NCBI GenBank assembly: GCA_934153945.1
Contig: CAKPFM010000001.1
Span: 72,128-136,127, forward strand
Direction: 5' to 3'
DNA length: 64,000 bases
Source: an uncultured Bacilli bacterium
GTDB lineage: Bacteria > Bacillota_I > Bacilli_A > RF39 > UBA660
Position numbers and translations under genes: made by a program. Below the pieces are notes generated by a model. It was given only the letters and a program-made list of their open reading frames with translations. It made no database searches and was not told the DNA's origin. Below are positions 682 through 42,015 of this stretch, in pieces; within the stretch, counting starts at the first letter, position 1; every line of letters starts with the position of its first letter.

Positions 682-788
682 AATATGTTATATTATTAGA
701 GCTATATTTAGTTTAATATAGATTAAGTGGGAGCAAAACGGATTATGCAATTTTTACCACACGCGAAAAAAATAAGGAGGTGTTTTTC

Positions 789-1217: not shown

Positions 1218-1278
1218 TTAACATATAGGTTATACCTATGTGGAAGGAAAATCCGTTATACCACATAAGGAGGTTAAT

Positions 1279-1974: not shown

Positions 1975-1984
1975 TTATTGTTAT

Positions 1985-2627: not shown

Positions 2628-2645
2628 TTTAAGGAGGAATATAAA

Positions 2646-3011: not shown

Positions 3012-3029
3012 TTAAAAAATATGGTTGGC

Positions 3030-3072
3030 CTGTACTAAAAAATATAGTATAGGCTTTCACCGTTTATTTATA
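3030..3072 (+). terminator. possible partial terminator/attenuator after rplL
   Basis: Hairpin GCCTGTACTA-N8-TAGTATAGGC (one G-U pair) followed by a T-rich tract. Confidence 0.35.
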
Positions 3073-3082
3073 TGGGGTATTT

Positions 3083-3670
3083 ATGAATCAATACTTTGAA
3101 AATAATGAAAATTTAAAAAGTGAAATACAAATAAAAAAAGTAAAAATAAAAAATAATGACTTTGAATTTATGACTGACAATGGTGTATTTTCTAAAAAAG
3201 GATTAGATTTTGGTACTAGAAGTTTGTTAGAAACAATAGATACTAATGCTATTACTGGAAACGTACTAGATTTTGGATGTGGATATGGACCAATTGGTAT
3301 CTACATTGCTAGTATGACAAACGCCCACGTTCATATGATTGATATAAACAGAAGGAGCTTGGAATTGGCAAGAAAGAATGTTAATCTGAATCATGTGAAT
3401 GTCACAATATACGAAAGTAATATATATGAAAATGTAACAGAAAAATTTGATTACATCATATCTAATCCACCAATAAGAGTAGGAAAAACTATACTATATA
3501 AAATATTATTTGAAGCAAAAGAACATTTAAACAAAAATGGAAAATTAATCATTGTAATAAATAAAGATCAAGGTGCTAAATCAGTTATGAAAGATTTAGA
3601 AAAAGAATATCAAGTTCATTTATTAGATAAAAATAAAGGATTTTATATAATTGAAGCAATTTATGTATAA
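3083..3670 (+). CDS. class I SAM-dependent methyltransferase, YbxB-like small rRNA/RNA methyltransferase
   Basis: Motif I VLDFGCGYGPIG and the NPPI motif (SNPPIRVGK). It sits between rplL and rpoB as ybxB does in Bacillus. Confidence 0.8.
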   Translation: MNQYFENNENLKSEIQIKKVKIKNNDFEFMTDNGVFSKKGLDFGTRSLLETIDTNAITGNVLDFGCGYGPIGIYIASMTNAHVHMIDINRRSLELARKNVNLNHVNVTIYESNIYENVTEKFDYIISNPPIRVGKTILYKILFEAKEHLNKNGKLIIVINKDQGAKSVMKDLEKEYQVHLLDKNKGFYIIEAIYV

Positions 3671-3697
3671 TTTAAACTAAAAGAATATAACAAACAA

Positions 3698-3726
3698 TTG
3701 ACAACAGTTGACAAATTTGATAAAAT
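3698..3726 (+). promoter_or_regulatory. candidate sigma-A promoter for rpoBC
   Basis: TTGACA-N17-TAAAAT about 70 nt upstream of the rpoB start. Confidence 0.4.
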
Positions 3727-3796
3727 CAATTATTGACGCATATACTTTATTTTAAGTTATGTTCTTTTGTAAAATATAGGTTATAGGGGTGAAAAA

Positions 3797-18489: not shown

Positions 18490-18836
18490 ATGAAAAAAGG
18501 ATTTACATTAATAGAGCTACTAGCAGTCATAGTAATTTTATCAATAATAGCGTTAATCGCAACACCGATGATATTAGGAGTAATAGAAACAACTAAAAAA
18601 GGAGCGCTAAATCAAGTGCATTAGGCTATATAGATGCAGTAGAAAAAACAATATCAGTAAATATGTTAAATAGTAGTAAAGAGAATATAGATGATGGAGT
18701 ATATGAAGTAAAAACATTAAAAGAAGCAAAATATGATATTCAAGTAAAAGGATAAATACCAAACGATGAAAGTTGGTTAAAAATAAAAGAAGGTGAAGTA
18801 GTATCATATTCATTAAAAATAGTAGAATTGGAATAA
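18490..18836 (+). pseudogene. type IV pilin/ComGC-like pseudogene with one frameshift and one in-frame stop
   Basis: Translation MKKGFTLIELLAVIVILSIIALIATPMILGVIETTKKGA runs into TAG at 18622. The reading continues in another frame (..KSSALGYIDAVEKTISVNMLNSSKENIDDGVYEVKTLKEAKYDIQVKG) to TAA at 18753 (..VKG*IPNDESWLKIKEGEVVSYSLKIVELE), then on to the stop at 18834. Confidence 0.7.
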
Positions 18837-20219: not shown

Positions 20220-21094
20220 AAAATGACGAAAATAAGAGAATAGATTCTTACCTTATAGAAAAATTAAATCTAAGTCGTAGTAAAATTCAAACTATGATAA
20301 AAAATAAACAAATACTAGTAAATAATAAGGAAATAAAAAATAGTTATGTTTTAAAAAATGGTGATATTATTACTTCCGAAGAATATGTAGAAGAAGAAAT
20401 GAAAGCTGTTCCAGAAAAAATGGATTTAGATATTGTATATGAAGATGAAGATGTAATAGTTGTCAATAAGAAAAATGGTATGGTAGTTCATCCAGCAGTA
20501 GGAAACAAACATGGAACACTTGTAAATGGGCTTTTATACCATTCTAAATTAAGTGATATAAATGGAGAATTTAGACCAGGAATAGTACATAGAATAGATG
20601 CTTATACAACAGGACTACTAGTGATTGCTAAAAACAATGAAGCACATCTATCTTTAGCTAAACAACTAGAAGAAAAAACAACAACAAGAAAGTATATTGC
20701 TTTAGTACATGGAGTCGTAAATACTGATACTGGAACAATAGATGCTCCAATAGGAAGAGACACTAACGATAGAAAGAAAATGGCTGTAACTGATGTAAAT
20801 GCTAAAAACGCAGTAACTCATTTTAAAGTACTAGAAAGATATAAAAATACTACTTTAATAGAATTACAACTAGAAACAGGAAGAACTCATCAAATAAGAG
20901 TTCATATGAATTATATAGGTTATCCAGTAGTAAATGATCCAGTATATGGTAAAAGAAAATTATTTGATAATACAGGTCAATGTTTACATGCTAAAACTCT
21001 AGGATTTATTCATCCTAGAACAGGGAAATATATGGAATTTACGAGCTGTTTACCAGAATGTTTTATAAACATACTAAATCAAGTTAAAGATTAA
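20201..21094 (+). CDS. rluD: RluA-family 23S rRNA pseudouridine synthase (RluD-like)
   Basis: S4 domain (RIDSYLIEKLNLSRSKIQTMIKNKQILVNNKEI) and catalytic HRIDAYTTGLLVIAKN. Overlaps the lspA 3' end, as in many Firmicutes. Confidence 0.85.
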   Translation: MQEIKIENDENKRIDSYLIEKLNLSRSKIQTMIKNKQILVNNKEIKNSYVLKNGDIITSEEYVEEEMKAVPEKMDLDIVYEDEDVIVVNKKNGMVVHPAVGNKHGTLVNGLLYHSKLSDINGEFRPGIVHRIDAYTTGLLVIAKNNEAHLSLAKQLEEKTTTRKYIALVHGVVNTDTGTIDAPIGRDTNDRKKMAVTDVNAKNAVTHFKVLERYKNTTLIELQLETGRTHQIRVHMNYIGYPVVNDPVYGKRKLFDNTGQCLHAKTLGFIHPRTGKYMEFTSCLPECFINILNQVKD

Positions 21095-23872: not shown

Positions 23873-24065
23873 AATTTTACTATTTTTTTTAATTTTTTTA
23901 AAATATACTAATTTAGTATTTTAGTTATATCAAATATATCTAATATAATAAAATAGCTATAACTAAAATAAAAAAATAGTAAAGAAAATAAATCTAAAAT
24001 ATGAAAATCCTCATTTGAAATACAAAAATAAATTTGATAAATTAAATCACCAAGAGGTGAACATC

Positions 24066-24875
24066 ATGAAAAAGAAATTCTATACTTGTAAATATGATAA
24101 AGCATTTAAAGAAATAATGATGAAAAAAGAAAACTTTAATATATTAAAAAAAGTATTAGAAACAATACTAAATATAGAAATAACAAATATAGAAATACAA
24201 CCATTAAACTTAAATACAAATAATATATATGTAAGAGGAAAAGAAGCAGATTTGCTAGTAACAACGAAACAAGGAAAAATAGAAGTAGAAGTAAATACTT
24301 ATTATCAAGACTATGTAAAAGTAAGAAACTTTTGTTTAATAACAAATATATATCAAAATGAAACAGTAGTAGGAGAAGATTATAATGAGGATAAAAATAT
24401 AATCCAAATAAATTTAAACTATGGAGTAAAAGATAAAGAATATAAAAGAATATATAAAGTAAGAGATGAAAGTGGATTAGAATATATAAAAAATTTGACA
24501 ATCTATGAAATAAATATGGATAAATATAAAGAAATATTATATAATGGAGATGAAGAACAACTAGAAGAAAATAAATATCTAATAATGTTAGATATGGATA
24601 AAGAAGAACTAAAGAAACTAAAAAAAGATAAGGTGGTAGAAGAATATATGGAAAAAATAGAAAGACTAAATCAAAATCCAATGTTTATAAATTGGATAAC
24701 AAAAGAAAAAGATGAAGAAATGATAAAAAACACCCAAATAAGAAGAGCAACAGAAGAAGGAATAGATACAGGAAAAAAGGAAATAGCTAAATCTATGTTA
24801 GAAGATGGAATGGATTTAGAAAAAGTATCGAAATTGACTGGATTAACTATAAATGAAATACAAAAACTAGTATAA
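24066..24875 (+). mobile_element. Rpn/YhgA-like PD-(D/E)XK nuclease-family 'putative transposase' (recombination-promoting nuclease family)
   Basis: ATG after AGAGGTG. N-terminus FYTCKYDKAFKEIMMKK resembles the family start. C-terminus ..EEGIDTGKKEIAKSMLEDGMDLEKVSKLTGLTINEIQKL is DUF4351-like. No terminal inverted repeats seen. Confidence 0.55.
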
Positions 24876-29719: not shown

Positions 29720-29961
29720 AGACTTTTTAGTCTTTTTTTAATTTTAATTTATTAAAGAAATATACATGATATAATACTAGTATGTAATGGTAGTATAATG
29801 ATAGTACAAGACTTTCCTAAGGAATACTTCGAAAATGACATACTTTAAAATAAGGCTAAAGAAAAGATTGTATTAATACATAATGACTAAATTATGGCAA
29901 AAATCTAAAAAACATAAAATAATTTGGGAAAATTATGATATAATTAATTTGCATTTTATAT

Positions 29962-30038
29962 GTCCTCGTAGCTCATCGGGATAGAGCAAAAGTTTCCTAA
30001 ACTTTAGGTGGTAGGTTCGAGTCCTATCGGGGACGCCA
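29962..30038 (+). tRNA. tRNA-Arg, anticodon CCT
   Basis: Manual cloverleaf fold: acceptor GTCCTCG/CGGGGAC, D arm GCTC..GAGC, anticodon arm AAAGT-TTCCTAA-ACTTT, T arm GTAGG-TTCGAGT-CCTAT, then discriminator G and encoded CCA. Confidence 0.85.
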
Positions 30039-30051
30039 TTTTTTAACTATA

Positions 30052-30079
30052 AAAGACTTGGTAAAACAAGACTTTTTTC
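30052..30079 (+). terminator. terminator-like hairpin after tRNA-Arg
   Basis: AAGACTTG-N7-CAAGACTT (one mismatch) followed by TTTTTT. Confidence 0.5.
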
Positions 30080-30111
30080 ATGTTATAATTTTGTTAGGAG
30101 GATGTTAATTT

Positions 30112-30882
30112 ATGAAAGAAACATTCAAAAATGGTTTTCTTGATGATAAGATGCAAGAAAAAATTAAAAAAGTTAAATTTAAATATAAAGAAGAATTTGA
30201 TACGTTATATGATTTTAATAGATTAACATATAAGGTTTTTGAAAATTGCAAAGATATTGATGCAGTAGATGAAAATCTGTATTTGTTACCTGCTTTTGTA
30301 GAGATTAGTAAATTATATCAATCAGCAGTTATTATGTTAGAATATGGTTTCCTTAATAATTTTGAAAGTATAGTAAGAAATATGTTAGAGTTATCATTCC
30401 AAATGTTATATGTGTTTGATGATAAAGAAAACGTTAAAAATTTAAAAAAATATACTTATTCTGAAACTATGAAAAAATTGGAATATATCAAAGATAAAAA
30501 ATTATACGATGTTGTACCTAAGGAATTTGTGGATAGACGATATGCAGAATTAGAAAGTTTAAAATCTGATATAAAAAAAATAGGTGCAAAGAATCCGCCA
30601 AATGTAAAAGATATGTGTAAAAATTTAGGATTAGAAAAAGAATATGTATATTATCAATTATTAAGTGATTATACTCATAATGATTATAGTATTATATTTG
30701 ATTTAAATATTTTTACTAAAGAAGGTGTACTTGTAAATTCAAATGGTAATTACACAAATTTTAAATATAATAGTTTAAGATTGATATCTACATTAAATAT
30801 GACATTATTAAAAATGATTGAAAGATATGTTCCGCTATTAAAATCTGAATATGATGAATTGATAAGAAAAGCATTTAATTGA
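30112..30882 (+). CDS. hypothetical protein, 256 aa, first gene of the tRNA-Arg-adjacent island
   Basis: Long ORF with RBS AGGAGG. No motif I can recognise. Confidence 0.55.
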   Translation: MKETFKNGFLDDKMQEKIKKVKFKYKEEFDTLYDFNRLTYKVFENCKDIDAVDENLYLLPAFVEISKLYQSAVIMLEYGFLNNFESIVRNMLELSFQMLYVFDDKENVKNLKKYTYSETMKKLEYIKDKKLYDVVPKEFVDRRYAELESLKSDIKKIGAKNPPNVKDMCKNLGLEKEYVYYQLLSDYTHNDYSIIFDLNIFTKEGVLVNSNGNYTNFKYNSLRLISTLNMTLLKMIERYVPLLKSEYDELIRKAFN

Positions 30883-31158
30883 TATAAAGTCAAAGAAAAA
30901 TAAATTGAATGATATATTATATATCATTGAAATGTGATATAATTAGTGTGGGTGGTGTAATTATGGAAATAAAAAATAATAAAATAATTTATAAAGCATA
31001 TAAAGAATTTTATAGGAAAGAACCCAATTTTTGTAAAGAAAATATAAGGAATATTACAATAGAAATTCAATCAATGCTTTTTTATATTACGCGAATATGG
31101 AATAAATTTAGGATGTGAAAGTTTTGTTAAAAATGCATATAGTGATTTAGACTTACCA

Positions 31159-31587
31159 ATGGATATGACAATACAAGATATAATTATTGGAAAATTAATC
31201 GGAAAAAATATTGATTTGATTGATGATTCAATTAAGTTTAATGAACTTGCAAATAAATATATTGATGTTATTGGAAATGCAATAACAAATGTAATAAATA
31301 ATTCAGAAGATCCAATAGAAACATTACGAGTAATAACTTATATTTTATATACAAGAAAATATGTTTTACCGACAGCGACTGCTGATGTGATTAAGGAATT
31401 TACAAATTGTCAAGAAACAGACTTAGAAAATGTAAATAGATTAATTTATTCAATTAAGATTGAGTTGTGTAAGGATAACTTTGATAAAGTTAATATAGAA
31501 AAAATGATTAATGAATCAGAAAATGGAGAAACTCCACATATATCAGAAGAAAGTAGAAAGATAGCGGTAAAAGCATTATTAAAATAA
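31159..31587 (+). CDS. hypothetical protein, 142 aa
   Basis: ORF of unknown family. Confidence 0.45.
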   Translation: MDMTIQDIIIGKLIGKNIDLIDDSIKFNELANKYIDVIGNAITNVINNSEDPIETLRVITYILYTRKYVLPTATADVIKEFTNCQETDLENVNRLIYSIKIELCKDNFDKVNIEKMINESENGETPHISEESRKIAVKALLK

Positions 31588-31694
31588 TTATATCTAAGAT
31601 AAATAAAATTGATATAAAGTAAGTAGTAGTTTATCAAAACAGGATAAGATGTTTGTGTCACATTTTCTGATAAACCCTTATTTCATAAGAAAAT

Positions 31695-31787
31695 TTAATT
31701 AAAAAATGGTGTCAATTTGAATAATAGAAGTATAAGTAGAATGATGATAATGATTAAAACAAAGATTAAAAAATCTTTCTTAGTCAT
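31695..31787 (-). CDS. small hydrophobic peptide (30 aa, MTKKDFLIFVLIIIIILLILLLFKLTPFFN), candidate type I toxin-like membrane peptide
   Basis: ATG 7 nt after a GGAGG SD that lies in a perfect CCUCC-GAAA-GGAGG hairpin on the mRNA strand. Paralog of the peptide at 39544..39627. Not in the supplied ORF track (below the size cutoff). Confidence 0.55.
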   Translation of the reverse strand: MTKKDFLIFVLIIIIILLILLLFKLTPFFN

Positions 31788-31867
31788 TTCACCACCTCCT
31801 TTCGGAGGTAAGCACTCAACGGTTAAAGTATTACTAAATAAATTATATTAAAACATATATTATAAAA

Positions 31868-31892
31868 ATAACTCAAAAGTTATTTTTTTTAA
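31868..31892. terminator. palindromic terminator-like hairpin between peptide 1 and the VTC fragment
   Basis: AATAACT-CAAA-AGTTATT flanked by an A-run and a T-run. Confidence 0.45.
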
Positions 31893-31963
31893 TCTTTATT
31901 TAATAAAATGGAAATAAAATGATAATGAAATGAAGGGCATAATCATTTCTAAAGGAGGAAAAT

Positions 31964-32341
31964 ATGTATGATAATCACTTTCAAAGAGTAGAAGAAAAAT
32001 ACTTATTAAATGAAGAACAAAAAGAAATATTTTTAAAAAAAATTAAAAATTATATAAAAAAAGATAAATTTTATATAAGCAATATTCATATTGATAATAA
32101 AAATTTAAGAATTACATTTGATAACAATTTAAGAAGTAGAAAAAGTAATCTATACTTTAAAGATGAAGAATCTTTAGAAAATTACTTTAGTGATAATATG
32201 TATATAATGGAAATAAAAACTGTAGGTTCTATGCCTTTATGGTTAGTTAGAATTTTGTCAGAAATGAATATTATGCCAACATCATTTTCAAAATATGGAA
32301 AAATATATGAAAAAGAAATGGAGAAAATAAAATATGCTTAA
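31964..32341 (+). CDS. VTC-domain (polyphosphate polymerase-like) protein, N-terminally truncated version (125 aa)
   Basis: Matches only the C-terminal half of ~240-aa bacterial VTC proteins (NLRITFDNNL.., IMEIKTVGSMPLW.., ..TSFSKYGKIY). No ORF upstream could supply the missing half. It has its own strong RBS AAAGGAGG. Confidence 0.6.
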   Translation: MYDNHFQRVEEKYLLNEEQKEIFLKKIKNYIKKDKFYISNIHIDNKNLRITFDNNLRSRKSNLYFKDEESLENYFSDNMYIMEIKTVGSMPLWLVRILSEMNIMPTSFSKYGKIYEKEMEKIKYA

Positions 32342-33005
32342 TAGTATTTTTACAAGTACAACTAGTTCTATTGAACTATCATCATTACTTATATGTTCTA
32401 TAACATCAATTATATTAGGTTTCATAATTGCCTTAGTACATAAATATACATCTAAATATAGTAAAAATTTTTTAATAACGGTAACTTTATTACCAATAAT
32501 GGTTGAATCTGTTATGTTAATGGTAAATGGAAATTTAGGAACTTCAGTAGCGATAATGGGAGCATTCAGTCTAGTAAGATTTAGAAGTATACCAGGAACA
32601 TCAAGAGAAATATTAGTAGTATTCTTTGCTATGGCAGTAGGACTTGCTACTGGTATGGGACAAATATGGTTTGCTATTATATTAACAATAATAGGATGTT
32701 TAATGATATTATTATTTAGTAATGTTAAAATATTTGATATAAACAAAAATGTCAAAGAATTAAAAATATTAATACCAGAAAATTTAGATTATATAGATGT
32801 ATTTGATGATATTTTTGATAAATATTTAATAGAATGTAATTTAGAAAAAACAAAAACAACAAATATGGGAAGTATGTTTGAATTAACATATCTAGTTGTA
32901 TTAAAAGACAATATAAAAGAAAAAGATCTTATAGATGAAATAAGAACAAGAAATAGTAACTTAAAAATATCGTTATCAAGAGAAAATAATACTTTAGATT
33001 TATAG
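32334..33005 (+). CDS. DUF4956-family membrane protein
   Basis: Signature MGAFSLVRFRSIPGTSREI within four TM helices. Overlaps the VTC gene end; VTC-DUF4956 pairs are a known cassette. Confidence 0.7.
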   Translation: MLNSIFTSTTSSIELSSLLICSITSIILGFIIALVHKYTSKYSKNFLITVTLLPIMVESVMLMVNGNLGTSVAIMGAFSLVRFRSIPGTSREILVVFFAMAVGLATGMGQIWFAIILTIIGCLMILLFSNVKIFDINKNVKELKILIPENLDYIDVFDDIFDKYLIECNLEKTKTTNMGSMFELTYLVVLKDNIKEKDLIDEIRTRNSNLKISLSRENNTLDL

Positions 33006-33013
33006 GAGCAAAT

Positions 33014-34606
33014 ATGAAAAAGAAATATATAATAATTATATTATTACTAGCTTTATGTGGTATCTTTGTATTATTTAAAATTGTACCAAATGAAAATGAA
33101 GAAGAAGCAATAATTAATGATGACATAGATTGGTCTACATACGAAGTTACAAATTATACTCTAACAGAAAGTATAACTATAACAAAAGAAGGAATTTATA
33201 ATTTAACAGGTACACTTAATGGAAGTATTACTATTAATACTAAAGGAAATGTAAAACTAATATTAAACAATGTAACAATTAATAATAATGGACCTGCTAT
33301 ATATATTGAAAATGCTAATATAACAGTTATTGAAACAGAAGAAGGTACAGTTAATACTCTATCAGATAGTAATACTTATAATAATTATGAAGATGAAATA
33401 GAAGGTACAATTTATAGTAAAGATGATTTAGTATTAGAAGGAAATGGAGCTTTAATTGTAAAAGGTAATAAAGGAGATGCTATAGTTAGTAAAGATAGCA
33501 TTAAAATAAATAGTGGTACTTATAATATTACATCAGCTTCTACTGGTATTAAAGTAAAAGATTCTATATATATAGTAGATGGAACATTCAAAATAAATTC
33601 TTCACTAGATGGAATAAAATCAACTAAAGGATATGTTCAAATTGATAATGGAGAATTTATTATAGTATCAGTTAATGATGGTATTCAAGCTGAAACAAAA
33701 CTTTTAATTAATGAAGGTAATTTTAATATAACTACCGGTTCAGGAAGCCCAACATTAAATGGTAATAGAAAAGTAACTATTATAGATAGTTCTAAAGGAT
33801 TAAAAGCAGGAGATAGTCTTATCATAAATGGTGGATCTTATAATTTAGATACTTTAGATGATGCAATACATTCAAATAATTATTTATATATTAAAAATGC
33901 TAGTTTAAATATATCAACAGGTGATGATGGCATACATTCGGATAAGGAATTGGTAATAGATAGTGGTACTATAAAAATTAATAAAAGTTATGAGGGTATT
34001 GAATCGGAAAATATTACTATTAATGGTGGTGATATTAATATAATATCTAATGATGATGGTATAAATGCTGCAGGAGATAGTACAGGTGGATTAACAATCA
34101 ATAATGGTAATATATATGTAAATGCTAGTGGAGATGGACTAGATGCTAATGGTTCAATATATGTTAATGGTGGAACTATAACTGTCGATGGACCAACAGA
34201 TAATGGAAATGGTGCTCTTGATTATGATTCAAAATGTATAGTAAAAGGTGGAACTTTAATAGCAGCAGGTTCAAGCGGAATGGCTCAAGAAATTAGTAGT
34301 GATTCTACTCAATATGGATTATTGATTAACTTTACAAATACATACAATGCAGGAATTAAAATTTCTATTTTGGATAGTAATGATAATGAAGTAATATCAT
34401 ATACACCAACAAAAACATTCTCATTGATTGTATTTAGTATAGCTGACTTAAAAACAGGTACATATAAAATAATGATAAATGATGAAGAATATCAAACAGT
34501 AACAATAAGTAGTATAACAACTACGGTTGGTTCTGTACAAGGTATGGAAGGTAATCCCGGCATGGGTGGACCAGGAATGGGTGGTCAACCTAGAAGAACT
34601 AGATAA
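33014..34606 (+). CDS. secreted beta-helix repeat protein, Cthe_2159-like carbohydrate-binding domain family
   Basis: Signal/TM anchor MKKKYIIIILLLALCGIFVLF. Repeated ITxxGxYxLTGTLNGSITIN... units resemble the Cthe_2159 family consensus. Gly/Pro-rich C-terminus. Confidence 0.6.
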   Translation: MKKKYIIIILLLALCGIFVLFKIVPNENEEEAIINDDIDWSTYEVTNYTLTESITITKEGIYNLTGTLNGSITINTKGNVKLILNNVTINNNGPAIYIENANITVIETEEGTVNTLSDSNTYNNYEDEIEGTIYSKDDLVLEGNGALIVKGNKGDAIVSKDSIKINSGTYNITSASTGIKVKDSIYIVDGTFKINSSLDGIKSTKGYVQIDNGEFIIVSVNDGIQAETKLLINEGNFNITTGSGSPTLNGNRKVTIIDSSKGLKAGDSLIINGGSYNLDTLDDAIHSNNYLYIKNASLNISTGDDGIHSDKELVIDSGTIKINKSYEGIESENITINGGDINIISNDDGINAAGDSTGGLTINNGNIYVNASGDGLDANGSIYVNGGTITVDGPTDNGNGALDYDSKCIVKGGTLIAAGSSGMAQEISSDSTQYGLLINFTNTYNAGIKISILDSNDNEVISYTPTKTFSLIVFSIADLKTGTYKIMINDEEYQTVTISSITTTVGSVQGMEGNPGMGGPGMGGQPRRTR

Positions 34607-34669
34607 AATTGTCTTTATATGACAATTTTTTTGCTTTTATGATATAATTGAAAAGAAGTAGGTGACAAT

Positions 34670-35926
34670 ATGAAACAATTAAATTTAACAAGTACTCCTT
34701 ACATAATTAAGTGTAAAGATTATAGTACATTAACATTTGATTTGATATATCCAACAACATATGATGCAAAAAACATGTTTGATAAAGAATTATTCAAACA
34801 GATAGTTATGAACTCATCCTTTGATTATAAAACAGAGCAAGAATTTAAAAAAGCAAAAATTAATAAATTGATTATAGGTTTAAATTGTAAAACTATTAGA
34901 TACCATAATAATTTATATATAATATATTCTTTAACAATACCAGATCCTAAAAAAGTAAAAGATTTTAATATAGAAGAATCTTTTGAATTTTTTTATAACA
35001 CCATTTATAAACCCAATATAATAAATGATGAATTTAATAATAAACAATTTGAAAGAGAAAAAGAATATATAAAATTTGGTATTCAAAACTCACTAAAAAG
35101 AATCCAAAATTATGGATTTCAAAGATTTATTGAAGTAGCAGATGATATAGGAGATTTAAAAAATAACTTAAATAATAATCTTGATTTGATTGAAAATACA
35201 ACTGCAAAAAGTTTATATGATTATTATAAAAAAATTGTTATAAATAATACACCAATATGTGTTGTTTATGGAAATATAGAAGAAAAAGAAGTAAATAAAT
35301 TATATGATAAATATTTTAATCAAAATAAAACAATAACAATTAATGAAGATTATGATTGCTATATGAAATTAAATGAAACAACTAATTATGTAGAAGAAGT
35401 ATCAAAATTTAATCAATCAGTACTTTATATGTGTTATAAAGTTAAAAATATGAAAGAAGAAGATAAAATATATTTAATGTTATTATCTGATATATTAAAT
35501 GATAGATCAACAAATTTAGTATTTAAAGCTTTACGTATAAAAAATAATCTAATTTATTCATATAATCTTTTATCATACAGTAGATATGGAATGTTTTTTA
35601 TAGAATCATATATAGAAAAAAATAACAAAGAAAAAACTATTGAAGTTATAAATGAACTAATGAATGAATTAAAAAATGAAAAATTAATTAAAGATTGTAT
35701 TTCAAAAATAATAGAAGAATTAGAGTATAATTTGATAGAAACAAAAGATTCAAAATATTATGAATTTGATAAATTTATAGATAATTTATTAGATACTAGA
35801 AAATCATTAGAAACAATATATGAAACATATCAAAATATAGATATCAATGAATTTATGCAATTTTTAAATAGAGTAAAATTAGATACAGTATATTTTCTAA
35901 GAGGTGAAGCAGATGAAACAAAGTAA
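34670..35926 (+). CDS. M16-family peptidase-like protein lacking the HxxEH motif (inactive partner subunit)
   Basis: 418 aa of the same size and architecture as the next gene and overlapping it. No HxxEH motif. Confidence 0.5.
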   Translation: MKQLNLTSTPYIIKCKDYSTLTFDLIYPTTYDAKNMFDKELFKQIVMNSSFDYKTEQEFKKAKINKLIIGLNCKTIRYHNNLYIIYSLTIPDPKKVKDFNIEESFEFFYNTIYKPNIINDEFNNKQFEREKEYIKFGIQNSLKRIQNYGFQRFIEVADDIGDLKNNLNNNLDLIENTTAKSLYDYYKKIVINNTPICVVYGNIEEKEVNKLYDKYFNQNKTITINEDYDCYMKLNETTNYVEEVSKFNQSVLYMCYKVKNMKEEDKIYLMLLSDILNDRSTNLVFKALRIKNNLIYSYNLLSYSRYGMFFIESYIEKNNKEKTIEVINELMNELKNEKLIKDCISKIIEELEYNLIETKDSKYYEFDKFIDNLLDTRKSLETIYETYQNIDINEFMQFLNRVKLDTVYFLRGEADETK

Positions 35927-37157
35927 AATTTACACTTTAAAAAATGGATTAAAAGTAGTATTTTATCAAGATACAACTAAGCATTTATCATTTGCTGAAT
36001 TGATTGTAAAATATGGTGGTATTAATAATAAATTTACTTTAAATAATAAAGAATATCATATCAATGATGGTATGGCTCATTTTTTAGAACATTTATTAAT
36101 AGAACATAGCATATATGGCAATGTACTTGAATATTTTCATAATAATCATATAAGTACAAATGGATTGACATCAATTAAACGTACTAAATTTTATATAAAA
36201 ACAGCTAAAAATTTTTTAGATAATTTAGAAAAATTAATCAAAATAGTTAATCAGCCAATATTTAATGAAGAAGATATAGAAAAAACTAAACCAGCTATTT
36301 ATGAAGAAATAAGAAAAGGAAAAGATAATAATTTTAAAATGTTATTTAATTTAGAAAAAAGTTGTTTATTTAATAATATAGATGCTAAATCAGTTTTGGG
36401 AGAAATAGAAGATATTCAAAATATTAATTATGAAATGGCAAAATTATGTCATGATGTATTTTATCAACCTCAAAATCAGATTCTAGCAATTGCTGGTAAT
36501 GTTGACATAGAAAAAACACTTGAATTAATAGAAAAAGTATATGATGAAATTAATATTAAAAAAATAGAGTATCAAGTACCAACTATAGCAGAACCAAATG
36601 AAGTAGCTAAATTAAATGATTTTATTTATAGAGATATTGAAAATGATTTTGTTAGAATTGCATATAAGATTAATATAGCATCTCTATCTCCATATGAAAG
36701 AGTAAAATTAACTTTTTATATTGGTTATTTTTTAGAGTATAATTTTGATGAAACTTCTATAAATTATAAAAAATTGATGGATGATAAAATATCTGTTAAC
36801 AATATCAATAGCAATGTTAGTTTTATTGATAATTTTATGATTATAACAATAGATACTTATACTGATAAACATGATGAATTTATAAATTTAATAAAAACTG
36901 CTATAGAAAGTAAAGCCATAGATAAAGAAGATTTTGAAATTAGAAAAAAGAGAACATTAATAAATTTTCTTTTGAGGGAAGAAAACTTTATGAGTATGAT
37001 AAATCCTTTTGTTGATAATATTTTATCGTTTGATTATTATGAAAATGATAAGATAGAAGATATAGAAGAAGAAAACTATGAAGAGTATAGTAATATAATA
37101 AATTCATTAGATTTTAGTAACTATACTATATTGAAAATGTTAAAGAAGATAAATTAG
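35913..37157 (+). CDS. M16-family (pitrilysin-like) zinc peptidase, active subunit
   Basis: Inverted zinc-binding motif HFLEH in NDGMAHFLEHLLIEHS. ATG after GAGGTGAAG. Confidence 0.7.
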   Translation: MKQSKIYTLKNGLKVVFYQDTTKHLSFAELIVKYGGINNKFTLNNKEYHINDGMAHFLEHLLIEHSIYGNVLEYFHNNHISTNGLTSIKRTKFYIKTAKNFLDNLEKLIKIVNQPIFNEEDIEKTKPAIYEEIRKGKDNNFKMLFNLEKSCLFNNIDAKSVLGEIEDIQNINYEMAKLCHDVFYQPQNQILAIAGNVDIEKTLELIEKVYDEINIKKIEYQVPTIAEPNEVAKLNDFIYRDIENDFVRIAYKINIASLSPYERVKLTFYIGYFLEYNFDETSINYKKLMDDKISVNNINSNVSFIDNFMIITIDTYTDKHDEFINLIKTAIESKAIDKEDFEIRKKRTLINFLLREENFMSMINPFVDNILSFDYYENDKIEDIEEENYEEYSNIINSLDFSNYTILKMLKKIN

Positions 37158-37219
37158 GTTAGTATTTACTAACTTTTTTCTTTTTGTGATATAATATTTA
37201 CATTATTGGAAGTGATAAA

Positions 37220-37819
37220 ATGTCTAAAGTTTCAAATACAATAACATTATTAAATTTATTAGCAAGTGGTAAAAAATATAATATAAATGAATTAGCTGAT
37301 ATTCTAGAAGTAACACCTAGAATGGTTAGAATATATAAAGATGAATTAGAAAAGTCTGGAATATATATAGATACTATTATGGGACCATACGGAGGATATG
37401 TTTTAAATCAACAGATAAGAATTCCATATAGAAAATTCAAAACAGAAGATTATAAAATGTTAGATAAATATATTAAAGAAGAAACAAATGAAGAATTAAA
37501 AAATAAACTAATTTTATTACAAGATAAAATTAGAGGAATATATATTGGAAGTAAATCCGAAAGTAAAGAACTTAATTTGGAAAAAGAAACATTAAATAAA
37601 TACAATATTTTAACTAGAGCAATAAAAGAACATAGAAAGGTAAAAATTACTTATTATTCTTATAATAAAGGAGAAAATGAAAGAATAATAAATCCTATAG
37701 AAATGTTTTTATATAATACTGGATGGTTTTGTGCTGCATATTGTAATTTAAGATGTGACATGAGACATTTTGAATTAAAAAGAATAAGAAAAATAGAATT
37801 ATTAGAAGAAAAATTTTAA
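37220..37819 (+). CDS. WYL-domain transcriptional regulator with N-terminal HTH (YafY/BrxR/CapW-like architecture)
   Basis: N-terminal HTH (ITLLNLLASGKKYNINELADILEVTPRMVRIYKDELEKSGIYI). C-terminus ..KVKITYYSYNKGENERIINPIEMFLYNTGWFCAAYCNLRCDMRHFELKRIRKIE fits the WYL domain pattern. Confidence 0.7.
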   Translation: MSKVSNTITLLNLLASGKKYNINELADILEVTPRMVRIYKDELEKSGIYIDTIMGPYGGYVLNQQIRIPYRKFKTEDYKMLDKYIKEETNEELKNKLILLQDKIRGIYIGSKSESKELNLEKETLNKYNILTRAIKEHRKVKITYYSYNKGENERIINPIEMFLYNTGWFCAAYCNLRCDMRHFELKRIRKIELLEEKF

Positions 37820-37870
37820 GTTGACAACATATTACCTACTCAAGTAGTAATATCTACTTGGAGGTGTTTT

Positions 37871-38785
37871 ATGGAAGAAAATTTTAAACTTTTATTTGAT
37901 AGAATAATTGATACATTAGAAACAACAGATTTAATTAAAATCAAAAATCAATTAGAAAATATAAAAGGTAATACAGTTTTTGTAGGATCAGGTGGTTCTA
38001 AAGTAGTAGCTACTTTCGCATCTAAAATACTAAACGGGTCAAATGTAAAAAGTTCAAGAGATTTAAATTATATGGGCCTAAATAATATAGATAATATAAT
38101 GATATTTAGTTATAGTGGAATAGGTTATACAATAGAAAATTTATTAAAAAATAACAAAAAAATATATTTGTTTACTAATGGAAATAGGGAATATGAAAAT
38201 GTAGAAAATATAAAATATAACTCATCACTAAAAAGTGAACATAGTTTTATTTCATTAGCTAGCACACTTATGCCAATGACAATTTTATACAATTATTATA
38301 AAAATTTAGAAATTAATCATCTTAAATTAATTTTAAATGATATGTTTGAAAAAGCAAAAAATATAAATATTGAAAGCAATAATGTATATGAAATATTAAC
38401 AGGATATGATACTTTAACTGCTTCTACTTATTTAGAAAGTACAATGGTTGAATCTGGTATAGCTGTTCCAATTATCCATGATAAATATGATTATTGTCAT
38501 GGTAGAACAACTACATCATATAAATCACACAATGGTTTAATATATTATGAAAATACAAAAGAATTAGATAAACTTTTGCTAGAAAATTTAAGTAAATATT
38601 ATACTGAAATAATTAAAATAGAAAAGTATTATAGTGATGATTTTGTAATTGACAATGATTATTATGCAACAATAAAATCGATGTATTTAACTAAAAAATT
38701 AGCTGAAAATAAACAAATAGATTTATCGAAAATAGAATATTCACCTCTTGTAAAAAAATTATACTATTTTAAAGGAGAAATGTAA
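37871..38785 (+). CDS. SIS (sugar isomerase/phosphosugar-binding) domain protein, 304 aa
   Basis: Motifs GNTVFVGSGGSKVVATFASKIL (GxGxSxxxA) and DNIMIFSYSGIGYT (ISxSGxT). These fit the SIS fold better than a SIR2 fold. Confidence 0.55.
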   Translation: MEENFKLLFDRIIDTLETTDLIKIKNQLENIKGNTVFVGSGGSKVVATFASKILNGSNVKSSRDLNYMGLNNIDNIMIFSYSGIGYTIENLLKNNKKIYLFTNGNREYENVENIKYNSSLKSEHSFISLASTLMPMTILYNYYKNLEINHLKLILNDMFEKAKNINIESNNVYEILTGYDTLTASTYLESTMVESGIAVPIIHDKYDYCHGRTTTSYKSHNGLIYYENTKELDKLLLENLSKYYTEIIKIEKYYSDDFVIDNDYYATIKSMYLTKKLAENKQIDLSKIEYSPLVKKLYYFKGEM

Positions 38786-38787
38786 TT

Positions 38788-39384
38788 ATGGTAACATATG
38801 TAACAGGAAATTATGGTAAATATATATCAGTAAAAGAAAAATTTGAAAAATATAATATAGATATAAATTATTATAAATGTGATATTGATGAATTAAATAT
38901 TAATGATATAGAAAAAATAAGCAAAGATAAAGCTAGACAAGCTTATTTAAAATTAAATTCACCAGTATTTGTAGTAGATTCAGGATTTTATATTAGAAGT
39001 TATCCAAATAATCCAAATTATCCTGGAGCATTTGTTAAAAGATCTGGGGTAGCTAAAAATGTAGAAGAGTTATTAAATATTATGAGAGATGTTAAAGATA
39101 GATATTGTTTTTTCCTAGATTGTTTGACTTACTATGATGGAGAAAATTATAAAACTTTTTATGGTAAAAGTGAAGGATTTTTGTCATATGAAGTAAAGGG
39201 TAATGATTTAGTACAAGCCAAATCAAATTTATGGAAAGTATTTATTCCTAAAAATTATGATAAAACTTTAGCTGAAATGACTGAAGATGAAAGAAAAAAT
39301 AGGGGAGAAATAGGCGCTACTGAAAAGTTTATTAATTGGTATAAAGAAAATTTAAATGCTAAAAATTTAGTATTAAAAAAATAA
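38788..39384 (+). CDS. HAM1/RdgB-family (ITPase-fold) non-canonical NTP pyrophosphatase-like protein, divergent
   Basis: N-terminal YVTGNYGKYISVKEKFEKY (TGNxGK..E), VVDSGF, RYCFFLDCLTYYDGE and LAEMTEDERKNRGEIG follow the HAM1 family order. Starts 3 nt after the SIS gene stop. Confidence 0.5.
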   Translation: MVTYVTGNYGKYISVKEKFEKYNIDINYYKCDIDELNINDIEKISKDKARQAYLKLNSPVFVVDSGFYIRSYPNNPNYPGAFVKRSGVAKNVEELLNIMRDVKDRYCFFLDCLTYYDGENYKTFYGKSEGFLSYEVKGNDLVQAKSNLWKVFIPKNYDKTLAEMTEDERKNRGEIGATEKFINWYKENLNAKNLVLKK

Positions 39385-39398
39385 AAATATATGAAATA

Positions 39399-39540
39399 TT
39401 GAAAAAAATTTAAATATATGTTAATATGTATTTAGCAAGCAGTCTTGCATAAAATAAAAAAGGGAACATTCAATTGTGCATGTTGAGTGATTGCCTATAT
39501 AGGTTTCACCTAAATCATTGCTGAGTTAGGTGATTTTTCA
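39399..39540 (+). ncRNA. candidate small RNA 'A': consensus sigma-A promoter plus a ~105-nt transcript ending in a terminator that abuts the 3' end of peptide 2
   Basis: TTGAAA-N17-TAATAT (39399..39427). Terminator hairpin CACCTAA..TTAGGTG plus ATTTTT (39507..39538). No ORF. The 5' ~110 bp is duplicated at 39777..39890 (start of locus B). Confidence 0.45.
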
Positions 39541-39543
39541 TAT

Positions 39544-39627
39544 TTAGATTAAAACTATAAATAGTAATAATACTAATAGGAAGATAAGAATTACTAAAGC
39601 AAAGATTAAAAAATCTTTCTTGTTCAT
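39544..39627 (-). CDS. small hydrophobic peptide (27 aa, MNKKDFLIFALVILIFLLVLLLFIVLI), paralog of 31695..31787 and candidate type I toxin-like peptide
   Basis: GGGAGG SD 8 nt upstream of ATG. A CUUCU-AAAA-AGAAG hairpin abuts the SD. The 5' coding region is conserved with peptide 1 at the nucleotide level. Not in the ORF track. Confidence 0.55.
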   Translation of the reverse strand: MNKKDFLIFALVILIFLLVLLLFIVLI

Positions 39628-39795
39628 AATATCGCCTCCCTTCTTTTTAGAAGTTTGGCAAATCACCCAACTATTAAATGTCCCTATAAATAATATATCA
39701 AACATATATTCGTATATCAAGTAGTTTTATTAAATTTATAAAATTTAGTTTTAATAAAGTAATAATATTGTAAAATGATAAAAATATATGAAATA

Positions 39796-39938
39796 TTGAA
39801 AAAATTTTAAATATATGTTAATATGTATTTAGCAAGTAATTTTGCATAAAATAAAAAAGAGGAACATTCAATGTTGCAAGTGAATGTTGCCTCACAAAAG
39901 TGTGTGACACTCTACAAATGCAGGGTGTCTATTTTTTT
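39796..39938 (+). ncRNA. candidate small RNA 'B', second copy of the promoter plus 5' segment of sRNA A with its own terminator
   Basis: TTGAAA-N17-TAATAT (39796..39824). Transcript 5' end is ~85% identical to sRNA A. Terminator GACAC..GTGTC plus TATTTTTTT (39906..39938). Its 3' end is convergent with the gene at 39989..40933. Confidence 0.4.
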
Positions 39939-39988
39939 GTTAATACCATTATTGTTTAGCATGAAATATATAGCACATTTTCATTTTA

Positions 39989-40933
39989 TTAAAATTTACT
40001 TTTTCTATAAACTAATATTGAATCATTTATTGTACTATCTTTAAATTTTATTCCATCAACACCTATGAATGAAAGCAATTGTGGATTATATTCTTGCAAT
40101 ATTTCAAAAGTTTTTTCTAGATTATATATTGGTTTCCAATCTGGGTGGTATGGAGTGTTTCTATCAGTTTTGTATAAATAACTAATAAGAAGTAACCCAT
40201 TATTATTTAAATTTTTTGATATATTATCTATCATTATTTTTAAAAAATGTCTCGAAATATATGTTCCAATATTTGATAACCATATTGAATCAAATTGTTT
40301 ATTCATTTTTACTTTAAATACATCGTCAGTAATAAATTCTAATTTTGTTTTTTTTATTTTTGCTTTTGTTTCGTCATATAATATATCGCTTTGCAAATAA
40401 GGATTGCATCCTACTATCACATCTATTTTATTTTCGTCAGAATAAAATAATTCTTCTCGTATATTCAATCCCTTAAAGTTTGAAAATAATTCATCCCAAA
40501 ATAAATAAGATTCATAATCTAATAATCTTAAAGTAGATATGATTCTTTTATAAATGTCATTATTAAAAACAAATTTATTATTTCTAAATGTTTTATATTT
40601 ATAACTTAAAAATTCTAAAAATTCATTTTTACTTAATTCAAGTAAACAACTTATTTTTAAATAAATATAAAATTTTGCATATGGACAAATATCTAAACAA
40701 GTTACATTTTGACAATCAAATAAACTTGCATTTATAATTTGGTCACCAGATGCTCCAACAGTTAATAATGTTCCATTAGATAAATTAAAATTGTTTATAT
40801 AACCTGCAATATTTTCTGTCGTAAAAGGATAGAGCAATTGAAACTCTTTAGCAATATCTTCTACAAACATCCCATTACATTTATTGATTGCATTCATCAA
40901 AAGTATTTCAAAATTTGAATCTTTTTTATACAT
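39989..40933 (-). CDS. hypothetical protein, 314 aa, possibly a SAM-binding DUF3419/BtaA-like fold
   Basis: Long minus-strand ORF. Segment LLTVGASGDQIINASLFDCQNVTCLDICP loosely resembles a methyltransferase-like motif I. Low-confidence family call. Confidence 0.5.
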   Translation of the reverse strand: MYKKDSNFEILLMNAINKCNGMFVEDIAKEFQLLYPFTTENIAGYINNFNLSNGTLLTVGASGDQIINASLFDCQNVTCLDICPYAKFYIYLKISCLLELSKNEFLEFLSYKYKTFRNNKFVFNNDIYKRIISTLRLLDYESYLFWDELFSNFKGLNIREELFYSDENKIDVIVGCNPYLQSDILYDETKAKIKKTKLEFITDDVFKVKMNKQFDSIWLSNIGTYISRHFLKIMIDNISKNLNNNGLLLISYLYKTDRNTPYHPDWKPIYNLEKTFEILQEYNPQLLSFIGVDGIKFKDSTINDSILVYRKSKF

Positions 40934-41181
40934 TTATCATCACCTCAATAACTTAAAATTGCTTATTATTATATCACATATTTAAACTATTGAATATATC
41001 TAATAAAATATTTAAAATCTATTTATAAATTAGTAGTTAAATAACTTTAAAATTCCTTATATATGGTTTACAATGAAGAAATTTAATCAAAAACAAATTC
41101 GTTAATAATAAAATTAATTTTAAATAAATGATTATCATTTACATTTATATATGATAAAATAATTTTGTTAAAGGAGTAAGT

Positions 41182-42015
41182 ATGGAAAAATATCAAGAAA
41201 TAGAAAGAAGTATAATAAAAAAATATCGAAAAGAAATATGGAGTAAATTTGTAAAAGCTGTAAGTGAATATGAATTAATAAAAGAAAACGATAATATTAT
41301 GGTATGTATTAGTGGAGGAAAAGACTCATTTTTATTAGCAAAATGTATTCAAGAACTACAAAGACATGGTAAATTTAAATTTGACGCTAAATACGTAGTA
41401 ATGAATCCGGGATACACAGGAAAAAATAAAAATCATATAATAAAAAATGCAGAGATTATGAATATACCAATAGAAATATTTGAAAGTGACATATTTGATA
41501 TAGTAGACAAAGTAGATAAAAGTCCATGTTATTTATGTGCTAGAATGAGAAGAGGATGTTTGTATAACAAAGCAAAAGAACTAGGATGCAATAAAATAGC
41601 TTTAGGACATCACTTCAACGATGTAATAGAAACAACACTTTTATCTATATTATATGGAGCTGAAACAAAAACGATGGTTCCAAAATTACATAGTGATAAT
41701 TTTGAAGGCTTAGAATTAATACGACCATTATATTTAGTAAAAGAAGAAGATGTAATATCTTGGAAAAAATTTAACGAATTAAAATTTTTAAATTGTGCTT
41801 GTAAATTTACAGAAGAAAATTACAAAGAAGAAAATAAAACAAGTAAAAGATTAGAAATAAAAAATTTAATAAAACAATTAAAAAAAATAAATCCCGATGT
41901 AGATTACAATATCTTTAAAAGTATGGATAATATTAATTTAAATTGTGTACTAGGATATTCAAAAAATGGCAAAAGAATAGAATTTGTAGATGATTATGAA
42001 AATAGAACTAGATAA
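41182..42015 (+). CDS. PP-loop ATPase, TtcA-like tRNA 2-thiocytidine synthetase family
   Basis: Translation IMVCISGGKDSFLLAKCIQ carries the SGGKDS PP-loop. CYLCARMRRG and a downstream Cys pair are present. Confidence 0.75.
   Translation: MEKYQEIERSIIKKYRKEIWSKFVKAVSEYELIKENDNIMVCISGGKDSFLLAKCIQELQRHGKFKFDAKYVVMNPGYTGKNKNHIIKNAEIMNIPIEIFESDIFDIVDKVDKSPCYLCARMRRGCLYNKAKELGCNKIALGHHFNDVIETTLLSILYGAETKTMVPKLHSDNFEGLELIRPLYLVKEEDVISWKKFNELKFLNCACKFTEENYKEENKTSKRLEIKNLIKQLKKINPDVDYNIFKSMDNINLNCVLGYSKNGKRIEFVDDYENRTR

Follow-up and report, generated by a model that had tools for sequence, protein, structure and literature searches.

The stretch of DNA considered here, referred to as the window, comprises 64,000 nucleotides (nt) of contig CAKPFM010000001.1 from an uncultured member of the Bacilli, an organism of ~23% GC that turns up in Hadza and other human gut metagenomes. 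The window itself has a GC content of ~23%, its genes are co-oriented with replication and it starts in the nusG-rplKAJL-rpoBC cluster. Our subject is the interval that runs from a tRNA-Arg(CCT) gene to a gene for a TtcA-like tRNA thiolase (Table 1), which the original prediction had read as one accessory island lying directly downstream of the tRNA. In order, this interval holds a DUF5677 gene, a broken gene for a 207-aa protein, a gene for a small hydrophobic peptide, a trio of VTC-domain, DUF4956 and beta-helix genes, a pair of M16 peptidase genes, a WYL regulator gene with SIS and Ham1-like partners, two small RNA (sRNA)-like genes with a second peptide gene and a convergent 314-aa gene. 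Much of the original inventory was borne out: the tRNA is recognized by ARAGORN and Rfam, the listed genes are recovered with Pfam, the sRNA locus is indeed duplicated as an 89.5% repeat, and, as claimed for an integrase, no recombinase domain was found in any open reading frame (ORF) between 29.4 and 41.2 kb with Pfam, NCBIfam, PADLOC or PHROGs. Of the two hypothetical genes listed, the DUF5677 gene is present as described, but the "142-aa hypothetical" forms a single 207-aa gene together with a 69-aa ORF that precedes it, split in the window by an extra T at 31078. The boundaries of what varies between strains are, however, not those of the proposed island, and the tRNA at its edge is part of the incoming DNA.

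The interval was compared with three sets of sequences, namely dozens of metagenome contigs of the same species, the contigs L011 and L120-L124 of a sister lineage whose nucleotide identity is 93-96%, and 79 more distant relatives whose trigger factors are 56-76% identical. Aligned with blastn, one group of conspecific strains follows the window to 29820 and resumes at 31880, and these strains carry 84 bp of their own in between, consisting of the 3' half of a different tRNA-Arg(CCT) and 47 bp of terminator. Since strains free of the intervening window sequence, which we call the cassette, hold 84 bp that are absent from cassette-bearing strains, the difference is a replacement rather than a deletion or a clean insertion. 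All eight types of cassette-free contig tested have the same breakpoints (29820|31880), which recur in independent samples, and because contigs of separate samples and different assemblers agree on the junctions, these are not an assembly artefact. By these alignments, the cassette (29821-31879) is one discrete variable unit, and the annotated tRNA is included in it. Of 22 contigs with an identical upstream HD protein, about 6 carry the cassette, i.e., approximately a quarter of strains, and it is absent from the sister lineage (L011 and L120-L123). As the sister lineage has the other tRNA intact, the ancestral state is the one without the cassette, which is a derived replacement.

The resident, old-type tRNA-Arg(CCT) has 75 nt and shares 71% identity with the 77-nt tRNA annotated in the window. 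It is intact in cassette-free strains and in the outgroup L011, with 99% identity between them, and the window retains only its positions 1-38 (29785-29822) with several extra mutations; positions 5-38 align to window 29788-29820 at 94% identity (E = 5e-8). This stump ends right after ...CCTAA, the 3' edge of the anticodon loop, and it is to this point that it can be aligned with the new tRNA. The copy of the stump in the cassette-bearing strain L093 is less decayed than that of the window. The left arm of the cassette begins GGAATACTTCG... and its sequence is GGAATACTTCGAAAATGAC. In the spacer that separates the stump from the new tRNA, an extended -10 box (TGATATAAT) occupies 29936-29944, 17 nt ahead of that tRNA. 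No other part of the cassette is as variable as this spacer (93.5% identity of window and L093). Behind the new tRNA, at about 30051-30079, comes a hairpin and T-run terminator. Taken together, these alignments show a resident arginine tRNA gene that has been destroyed and an incoming tRNA of the same anticodon that would replace its function. AGG is rare in the window (18 of 546 Arg codons), thus selection on tRNA-Arg(CCT) is probably weak, though not necessarily absent.

The tRNA that was proposed as the attachment site therefore lies within the incoming DNA, and the resident tRNA is represented by the 5' fragment upstream of it. The repeat of the tRNA 3' end that had been suggested for 41.0-41.2 kb was found neither there nor across 28-43 kb. 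The 3' 25-26 nt of either tRNA have no copy with three or fewer mismatches in the window, and a short-word blastn search of 28-43 kb with the tRNA recovered only the 5' fragment at 29788-29820. This corrects a plausible annotation error, in which an imported tRNA was taken for the site where an 11-kb island had attached, although the true target is the 38-nt stump upstream. It also documents, in uncultured human-gut Bacilli, a case of a resident tRNA swapped for a foreign copy with the same anticodon, for which the empty site, an intermediate and decayed forms can all be recovered from metagenomes. The discriminator base of the incoming tRNA (window 30035) is G in the window and A in L093 and in the related tRNAs that are resident in the low-GC Bacilli contigs L116 and L117.

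Table 1. Features between the resident tRNA stump and the conserved right flank, in window coordinates.
Feature	Position	Strand	Basis
Pseudogene, 5' 38 nt of resident tRNA-Arg(CCT)	29785-29822	+	Alignment to cassette-free strains
Strain-variable cassette, 2,059 bp	29821-31879	+	Breakpoints against cassette-free contigs
Spacer of incoming DNA, 139 bp	29823-29961	+	Sequence reading
Incoming complete tRNA-Arg(CCT), 77 nt	29962-30038	+	ARAGORN and Rfam, 59.4 bits
DUF5677 protein, 256 aa	30112-30882	+	Pfam PF18928, E 2.9e-21
Pseudogene of 207-aa hypothetical protein	30963-31587	+	Intact in L093, L096
30-aa hydrophobic peptide (MTKKDFLIFVLIIIIILLILLLFKLTPFFN)	31695-31787	-	ORF; paralog of 39544-39627
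VTC-domain gene fragment, 125 aa	31964-32341	+	Pfam
DUF4956 membrane protein	32334-33005	+	Pfam
Cthe_2159 beta-helix protein	33014-34606	+	Pfam
M16 peptidase, first of pair	34670-35926	+	Pfam
M16 peptidase, second of pair	35904-37157	+	Pfam
Helix-turn-helix (HTH)-WYL regulator	37220-37819	+	Pfam
Predicted double-SIS-fold protein, 304 aa	37871-38785	+	AlphaFold model and Foldseek
Ham1/RdgB-like NTP pyrophosphatase	38788-39384	+	Pfam
sRNA-like gene 1	about 39432-39540	+	Promoter-like box, terminator, fold
27-aa hydrophobic peptide	39544-39627	-	ORF; paralog of 31695-31787
sRNA-like gene 2, orphan	about 39829-39938	+	Promoter-like box, terminator, fold
Strain-variable block	39939-41107	-	Missing in L103, L118
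314-aa gene, weak DUF3419/S-adenosylmethionine (SAM)-dependent methyltransferase-like	39989-40933	-	Sub-threshold Pfam match, E 1.4e-5
TtcA-like PP-loop tRNA thiolase, conserved right flank	41182-42015	+	Pfam and NCBIfam

Within the cassette, the DUF5677 gene is the only intact protein gene and has its own promoter. Its product matches the Pfam model with 76.7 bits against a cutoff of 27.1 (residues 57-196 on model positions 3-156 of 166), and the AlphaFold2 model, with a predicted local distance difference test (pLDDT) score of 84, is an all-helical bundle without a structural match in PDB or BFVD. Between the window and L093, this gene differs at a single position in 771 bp, far less than the adjoining 139-bp spacer. 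Six homologs only were retrieved. One of them (L097, 76% identity) shares the same promoter region and adjoins genes for a DnaB-like helicase and a cI-like repressor, and another (L098, 55%) lies two genes downstream of a large serine recombinase. According to a 2025 preprint, the DUF5677 domain is enriched beside serine recombinases in Bacillota (RADS preprint, 10.1101/2025.10.07.681051). The 207-aa gene is unbroken in the cassette strains L093 and L096, and the protein has no match in Pfam, PADLOC, PHROGs or NCBIfam.

Overall, we read the interval as a mosaic at a recombination-prone tRNA-Arg(CCT) locus, in which the cassette is likely the stump of a recombinase-bearing element and separate events have taken place downstream, and we give this reading a probability of roughly 0.7. 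Only the first ~2 kb are clearly acquired, and the locus is of an ordinary kind with one unusual detail, the tRNA replacement. The anticodon loop is a classical position of crossover in tRNA genes. The comparisons show that the cassette entered an ancestor with a different tRNA-Arg(CCT) at the site and that the resident gene was cut where its anticodon loop ends on the 3' side; the 5' 38 nt were left as a decaying pseudogene, and the 3' half and 47 bp were removed. With the cassette came a whole tRNA-Arg(CCT) to take the place of the old one, equipped with a promoter and a terminator, as well as the DUF5677 gene, the 207-aa gene and the gene for the small hydrophobic peptide. In the mechanism that we propose, a recombinase-bearing mobile element would initially have inserted at the anticodon loop, its own tRNA making good the damage, and a later deletion would have taken the recombinase, most of the length, the right-hand junction and the displaced 3' half of the tRNA. 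Two lesions are more recent still: L093 has the cassette with an intact 207-aa gene and a full-length VTC gene, and both are broken in the sublineage of the window, from which it follows that the frameshift in the former and the loss of 315 bp from the latter came later, in that sublineage.

With no mobility genes of its own, the cassette probably persists by homologous recombination through its flanks and has probably spread between strains in this manner, because its presence is uncoupled from the flanking haplotypes. In the segment of the WYL, SIS and Ham1-like genes (37200-39250), the cassette-bearing L093 is 95.7% identical to the window (4.3% different), and L002, which has no cassette, matches it at 100%. 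The locus as a whole shows a mosaic pattern of divergence. The same segment, compared between the window and L093, L104, L107, L102, L103, L118 and L011, is 94.6-100% identical among conspecific strains, and at 97.3% the sister lineage is closer to the window than several of them, which indicates that homologous recombination across lineage boundaries is frequent at this locus.

Genomic islands associated with tRNA genes have reportedly been sorted into sublocation classes by Williams in 2002. As in such islands, the variable DNA here starts inside the resident tRNA (29820/29821) and the cargo of the sister lineage starts at the tRNA 3' end, the content is strain-variable with a definable empty site and a breakpoint at the anticodon loop, the cargo consists of genes of unknown function and genes associated with mobile elements, and neighbouring segments are filled differently (a relaxase, insertion sequence fragments). 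Unlike them, the cassette has no integrase, no repeat of the tRNA 3' end and no compositional deviation, and its right junction is not derived from a tRNA. Nor is the resident tRNA restored with a 3' fragment from the element; it stays broken, and a complete gene of 71% identity, 139 bp further on, takes its place. The cassette also resembles the integrase-less islets left by degenerate prophages or integrative and conjugative elements and kept through recombination between homologous flanks, being 2 kb in length, devoid of mobility genes, in possession of a pseudogene and uncoupled from the flanking haplotype, while its main gene has homologs that lie terminally in recombinase- or phage-like modules; it differs in that no parent element was identified and no phage or plasmid homolog was found in the collections searched. 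With the cargo of RADS serine recombinases (10.1101/2025.10.07.681051) it shares the DUF5677 domain and the position of the L098 homolog two genes downstream of a serine recombinase, but the cassette has no recombinase.

Several observations weigh against this reading of the interval and its cassette. Integration followed by deletion is something that we infer, since no intact parent element, recombinase or right attachment site (attR) was found. The right junction lies 47 bp past the old tRNA, in the T-run of the terminator, and is not a tRNA-derived site. Elements that integrate into tRNA genes in the classical way use a 3' fragment to restore the tRNA and do not bring a whole gene 139 bp away. 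DUF5677 has no match in PADLOC or PHROGs, and the protein is unmatched in viral contigs and in phage and plasmid collections (tblastn for the latter two); an alignment search of viral contigs with DUF5677 likewise gave no match, and the new tRNA, an exact 30-mer of the spacer and the intact 207-aa protein are also unmatched in viral contigs. Downstream of the cassette, the replacement of the VTC trio and the M16 pair in the sister lineage was read at this locus, and complementarity between the sRNA-like genes and the peptide mRNA is no better than in shuffled controls (RNAduplex). Finally, the DUF5677 ORF that the RADS preprint tested is not among its five phage-protective ones, and a defence role of DUF5677 is unsupported for this reason (10.1101/2025.10.07.681051).

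A different origin of the cassette, the chief competitor of the one above, is possible, though we consider it unlikely. It may never have been part of a self-mobile element, and may instead be foreign chromosomal DNA of low-GC Bacilli, a tRNA-Arg(CCT) region with its neighbours, that was patched in by illegitimate or short-homology recombination with one crossover in the shared anticodon-loop sequence. In the low-GC Bacilli contigs L116 and L117, the usual resident tRNA-Arg(CCT) is of the new type, at 94% identity, and L117 shares with the window an HD gene upstream of it. Old and new tRNAs both have the TCCTAA anticodon-loop sequence at the break, the composition of the cassette is like that of its host, and the locus is visibly a recombination mosaic. 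Such a capture would also explain the missing mobility genes, the cassette having no recombinase, no att repeats and no terminal inverted repeats; indeed, apart from the similarity between pseudo-tRNA and new tRNA, no terminal inverted or direct repeats beyond chance were found. However, a crossover inside the tRNAs predicts a hybrid tRNA, and what is seen is half a tRNA, 139 bp of unrelated DNA and a full tRNA. DUF5677 homologs sit in mobile-element rather than chromosomal contexts, and the homology in L097 begins only past the tRNA terminator, so that the linkage of tRNA and DUF5677 is not conserved in a donor-like genome.

Beyond the cassette, the strain comparison bears on the island as it was first proposed, a single insertion of ~11 kb (29962-41180) at the 3' end of tRNA-Arg(CCT) whose integrase has since been lost. 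There is a hotspot of presence and absence anchored at tRNA-Arg(CCT), as that proposal holds, and most segments show some such variation within the species, but the polymorphism is nested and the product of multiple events, and the segments of 29962-41180 behave independently rather than as one island. Right-hand breakpoints fall at 31879, 34586 and 37164, and the block at 39939-41107 is variable separately; these distinct breakpoints imply that the segments vary independently and already contradict a single insertion. The breakpoint at 34586 is seen in L119, where the VTC/DUF4956/beta-helix trio (upstream of 34587) is replaced by 4.96 kb with a Mob_Pre relaxase; this contig stops before the left junction. 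The breakpoint at 37164 is that of the sister lineage, in which everything from the tRNA 3' end to this position is replaced and both the VTC trio and the M16 pair are absent at this locus. In their place are two hypothetical genes, a 772-775-aa prepilin/LamG protein gene and an ISL3 transposase fragment, uniformly so in the 24 contigs read. In L119, the replacing DNA (200-4682) encodes a MobV-type Mob_Pre relaxase and three unknown proteins (516, 340, and 115 aa), and the contig is 97% identical to the window from 34587 on.

Several of these segments also show lesions of their own. The VTC gene of the window has an in-frame internal deletion of 315 bp (junction 32090, TTCAT|ATTGAT) and encodes 125 aa as against the 230 aa of the full-length gene in L002, L093, L099 and others, so that the window is without L002 7107-7420. 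DUF4956 is deleted in L102 and L105. On this comparison, the VTC/DUF4956/beta-helix trio is dispensable and decaying; a search of the DUF4956 and VTC literature gave nothing useful. The two M16 genes overlap in tandem, and the HxxEH motif (HFLEH) is present in the second protein and missing from the first. Their alignments to the NCBIfam models YfmF_fam (135 vs. 285 bits) and YfmH_fam (160 vs. 250 bits) are full-length and below the equivalog cutoffs, and the pair would be called YmfF/YmfH-like only. Since homologs of 63 and 52% identity lie after tuf and before femAB in relatives, this is a normal chromosomal gene family, though one that is absent or broken here in some lineages. The first M16 gene is split into 154 and 246 aa in L118 and L119; truncation by an insertion was considered and rejected, as homology begins upstream of the gene, at 34587, and the split is an internal lesion. 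The 314-aa gene block is missing in L103 and L118, with homology resuming at 41108, and is present in the sister lineage.

Composition gives the single island no support either. GC content (0.18-0.27) and GC at third codon positions (0.07-0.17) across the interval are within the range of the flanking genes, and the codon-usage Kullback-Leibler divergence, a profile of which had been proposed as a check, carries no signal. Among the genes between the tRNA and TtcA, the WYL, SIS and Ham1-like genes are core-like, and relatives of the M16 pair lie beside tuf and femAB. In favour of a single island, between tig/HD and TtcA there is no gene that follows tig in the 79 relatives, and conserved gene order in distant relatives, which was named as the observation that would make the interval core, was indeed not seen. 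Across ~80 relatives, however, synteny is restricted to the U32-U32-greA-tig block, the genes upstream of which are as poorly conserved in order as the supposed island genes, and the loci of L012, L073 and L082 show a general scrambling of gene order. Deep synteny was therefore rejected as a test for an island: because the upstream flank is equally non-syntenic, it has no power to separate an island from background scrambling, and in a lineage whose gene order is scrambled outside one four-gene block a comparison with distant relatives is uninformative. The only hint of a large bay between tRNA and TtcA comes from L116, in which the new-type tRNA-Arg lies ~790 bp upstream of a TtcA homolog (83% nucleotide identity) and the locus resembles an "empty" one, yet L116 is one contig of 2 kb and has ddl rather than HD upstream of the tRNA. 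With the annotated tRNA inside the variable DNA and the true resident upstream of it, no tRNA 3' repeat in 28-43 kb, and a WYL trio that is invariant and recurs as an operon in other genera, we regard a single ~11-kb island as very improbable.

At the other extreme, nothing mobile may be involved at all, with an ordinary chromosome undergoing rapid scrambling of gene order and the strain differences being random deletions of ancestral DNA. The limited synteny across the ~80 relatives is what would be expected, and several of the differences are plain deletions, such as the 315 bp of the VTC gene, DUF4956 and the 314-aa gene block. What contradicts this explanation is that each state of the cassette site has sequence missing from the other: cassette-free strains carry 84 bp, including a functional tRNA 3' half, that cassette-bearing strains lack, which makes the difference a replacement. 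Alternative fillings with mobile-element genes (the Mob_Pre relaxase in L119 and the ISL3 transposase fragment in L011 and L120-L123) and the DUF5677 relatives beside a serine recombinase or phage-like genes also speak against it, and we find it hardly credible.

The mosaic reading parts the dispensable material of the interval from stable chromosomal genes, namely a conserved, uncharacterised WYL operon and TtcA. The WYL/double-SIS/Ham1 trio is found in every strain and in the sister lineage, and its three-gene order is kept at 70, 59, and 53% identity in L109/L110, L111, and L112, respectively, which belong to other genera and in which the trio is surrounded by cell-division, translation and other housekeeping genes. 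Because it is kept in every strain and in other genera, the operon is not island cargo. It had been noted that WYL-regulated modules are frequently defence or stress cargo, and such a role is not supported here by the invariance of the operon, its housekeeping contexts elsewhere, or PADLOC, in which only generic WYL models match the regulator and none matches the DUF5677, 207-aa, SIS, Ham1, M16 pair, VTC, DUF4956 or 314-aa proteins. The 304-aa protein has no match in Pfam, NCBIfam or a PDB sequence search. Its AlphaFold2 model (pLDDT 87.5, predicted template modelling score 0.90) is matched by Foldseek to NagB-II (8fdb, template modelling (TM) score 0.71), the GlmS isomerase domain and FrlB, with E of about 1e-11 to 1e-9 and TM scores of 0.6-0.7, and the protein is thus predicted to have the double-SIS phosphosugar isomerase/deaminase fold, in accordance with the SIS label that it had been given. 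It has 662 homologs with a smooth gradient of identity. The TtcA-like gene is likewise present in every strain, with a 59% homolog 9 kb from tig in L082. Judged by this distribution, the WYL/double-SIS/Ham1 operon and TtcA are stable chromosomal genes.

In the other genera, the operon lies at 7598-9782 in L109, 9348-11561 in L111 and 9349-11556 in L112, and is often beside radical-SAM or guanylate-kinase-like genes. The WYL gene is split into two ORFs, with the SIS and Ham1 genes intact, in L005 (8523-9138), L118 (2931-3529), L122 (4786-5397), and L123 (5398-5997); these splits in both lineages could be either repeated inactivation of the regulator or recurrent assembly errors at homopolymers. 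A related cluster is seen in L057 (11285-15691; trigger factor 63% identical), where tig is followed by genes for NUDIX, Ham1-like, HTH-WYL, phosphoribosyltransferase-like, radical SAM and dTMP-kinase-like proteins and a YhhQ-like transporter, which suggests salvage or sanitation of nucleotides or modified bases around the same WYL-Ham1 pair.

The 30-aa peptide of the cassette and the 27-aa peptide downstream of the operon are paralogs, as had been noted, with 74% nucleotide identity over 84 nt and a shared 21-mer that is found only twice in the window (0.03 expected). Both ORFs are hydrophobic, shorter than 60 aa and equipped with their own GGAGG-type Shine-Dalgarno (SD) sequences. In the 30-aa peptide, a strong SD lies inside a CCUCC-GAAA-GGAGG hairpin and is paired in the mRNA fold (z = -2.45). 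The second peptide is part of a module in which a gene for a 25-30-aa hydrophobic peptide is joined by a convergent sRNA-like gene of ~105 nt, which is framed by a promoter-like box and a terminator. Its end is beside the stop codon of the peptide gene, at a distance of 4 nt in the window. The duplicated repeat that contains the sRNA-like genes (39374-39496/39771-39892) is 124 bp at 89.5% identity, and the two genes fold with z = -2.8 and -3.3. Two complete tandem units, including the second peptide, are found in L103 (18729-19440); unit 2 of the window keeps the sRNA only, and the 314-aa block occupies the place of the second peptide of L103. From such comparisons, the 314-aa gene and the peptide/sRNA units evidently come and go. 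The family is multi-copy and conserved between genera: three units of the same design are present in L012 (2380-2606, 3667-3913, and 5531-5774), in which the 5' parts of the sRNA are 74% conserved and the hairpins are kept with different sequences. In each case, the gene behind the unit encodes a protein of 179-270 aa that is secreted or anchored in the membrane.

Known type I toxin-antitoxin loci of Firmicutes include Fst/RNAII, TxpA/RatA and BsrG/SR4. The modules here are similar in that a 27-30-aa peptide with a charged N-terminus and one hydrophobic helix is encoded behind a hairpin-sequestered SD, a convergent small RNA gene ends beside the peptide stop, and the units are multi-copy and in tandem, with one copy on acquired DNA. 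They differ in having no sequence similarity to known families, no Rfam match (the sRNA-like genes hit no Rfam family even at E <= 1) and no detectable pairing beyond a possible 3' overlap. It is the architecture, therefore, that makes a type I toxin-antitoxin reading a reasonable one by analogy. A trans-acting antitoxin role for the sRNA was considered and rejected, as the RNAduplex energies are no better than those of the shuffles, and RNAalifold on nine copies predicted nothing, the hairpins being out of register in the alignment. An sRNA partner was not found for the cassette peptide. If it follows the same analogy, this peptide may be a type I toxin by which loss of the cassette is discouraged. 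A bolder form of this idea is that the cassette is a recombinase-free, selfish "tRNA-swap" unit that spreads by natural recombination within and between species, displaces the resident isoacceptor and is held in place by dependence on its tRNA and by the linked type I toxin, with the DUF5677 and 207-aa genes as a two-gene cargo such as a defence system; we think this improbable.

Further breaks in synteny between strains are found on either side of the interval. After proS, at 18490-18624, the window has a 44-aa prepilin-type ORF (MKKGFTLIELLAVIVIL...) with 86% nucleotide identity to the 5' end of the 775-aa prepilin/LamG gene of the sister lineage, and it may be a truncated copy or a substrate for recombination. 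A PDDEXK_2/Rpn-type gene (recombination-promoting nuclease-like; 24015-24875) lies at another strain-specific break, and in L099 (1-5000) the 5 kb upstream of this gene are wholly different, with Dus, aminoacyl-tRNA synthetase, acetate kinase and DUF1848 genes. To the right, a further strain-specific break follows TtcA, where L103 has a DDE_Tnp_1 transposase gene (20487-20504) and the window has MarR-ABC genes.

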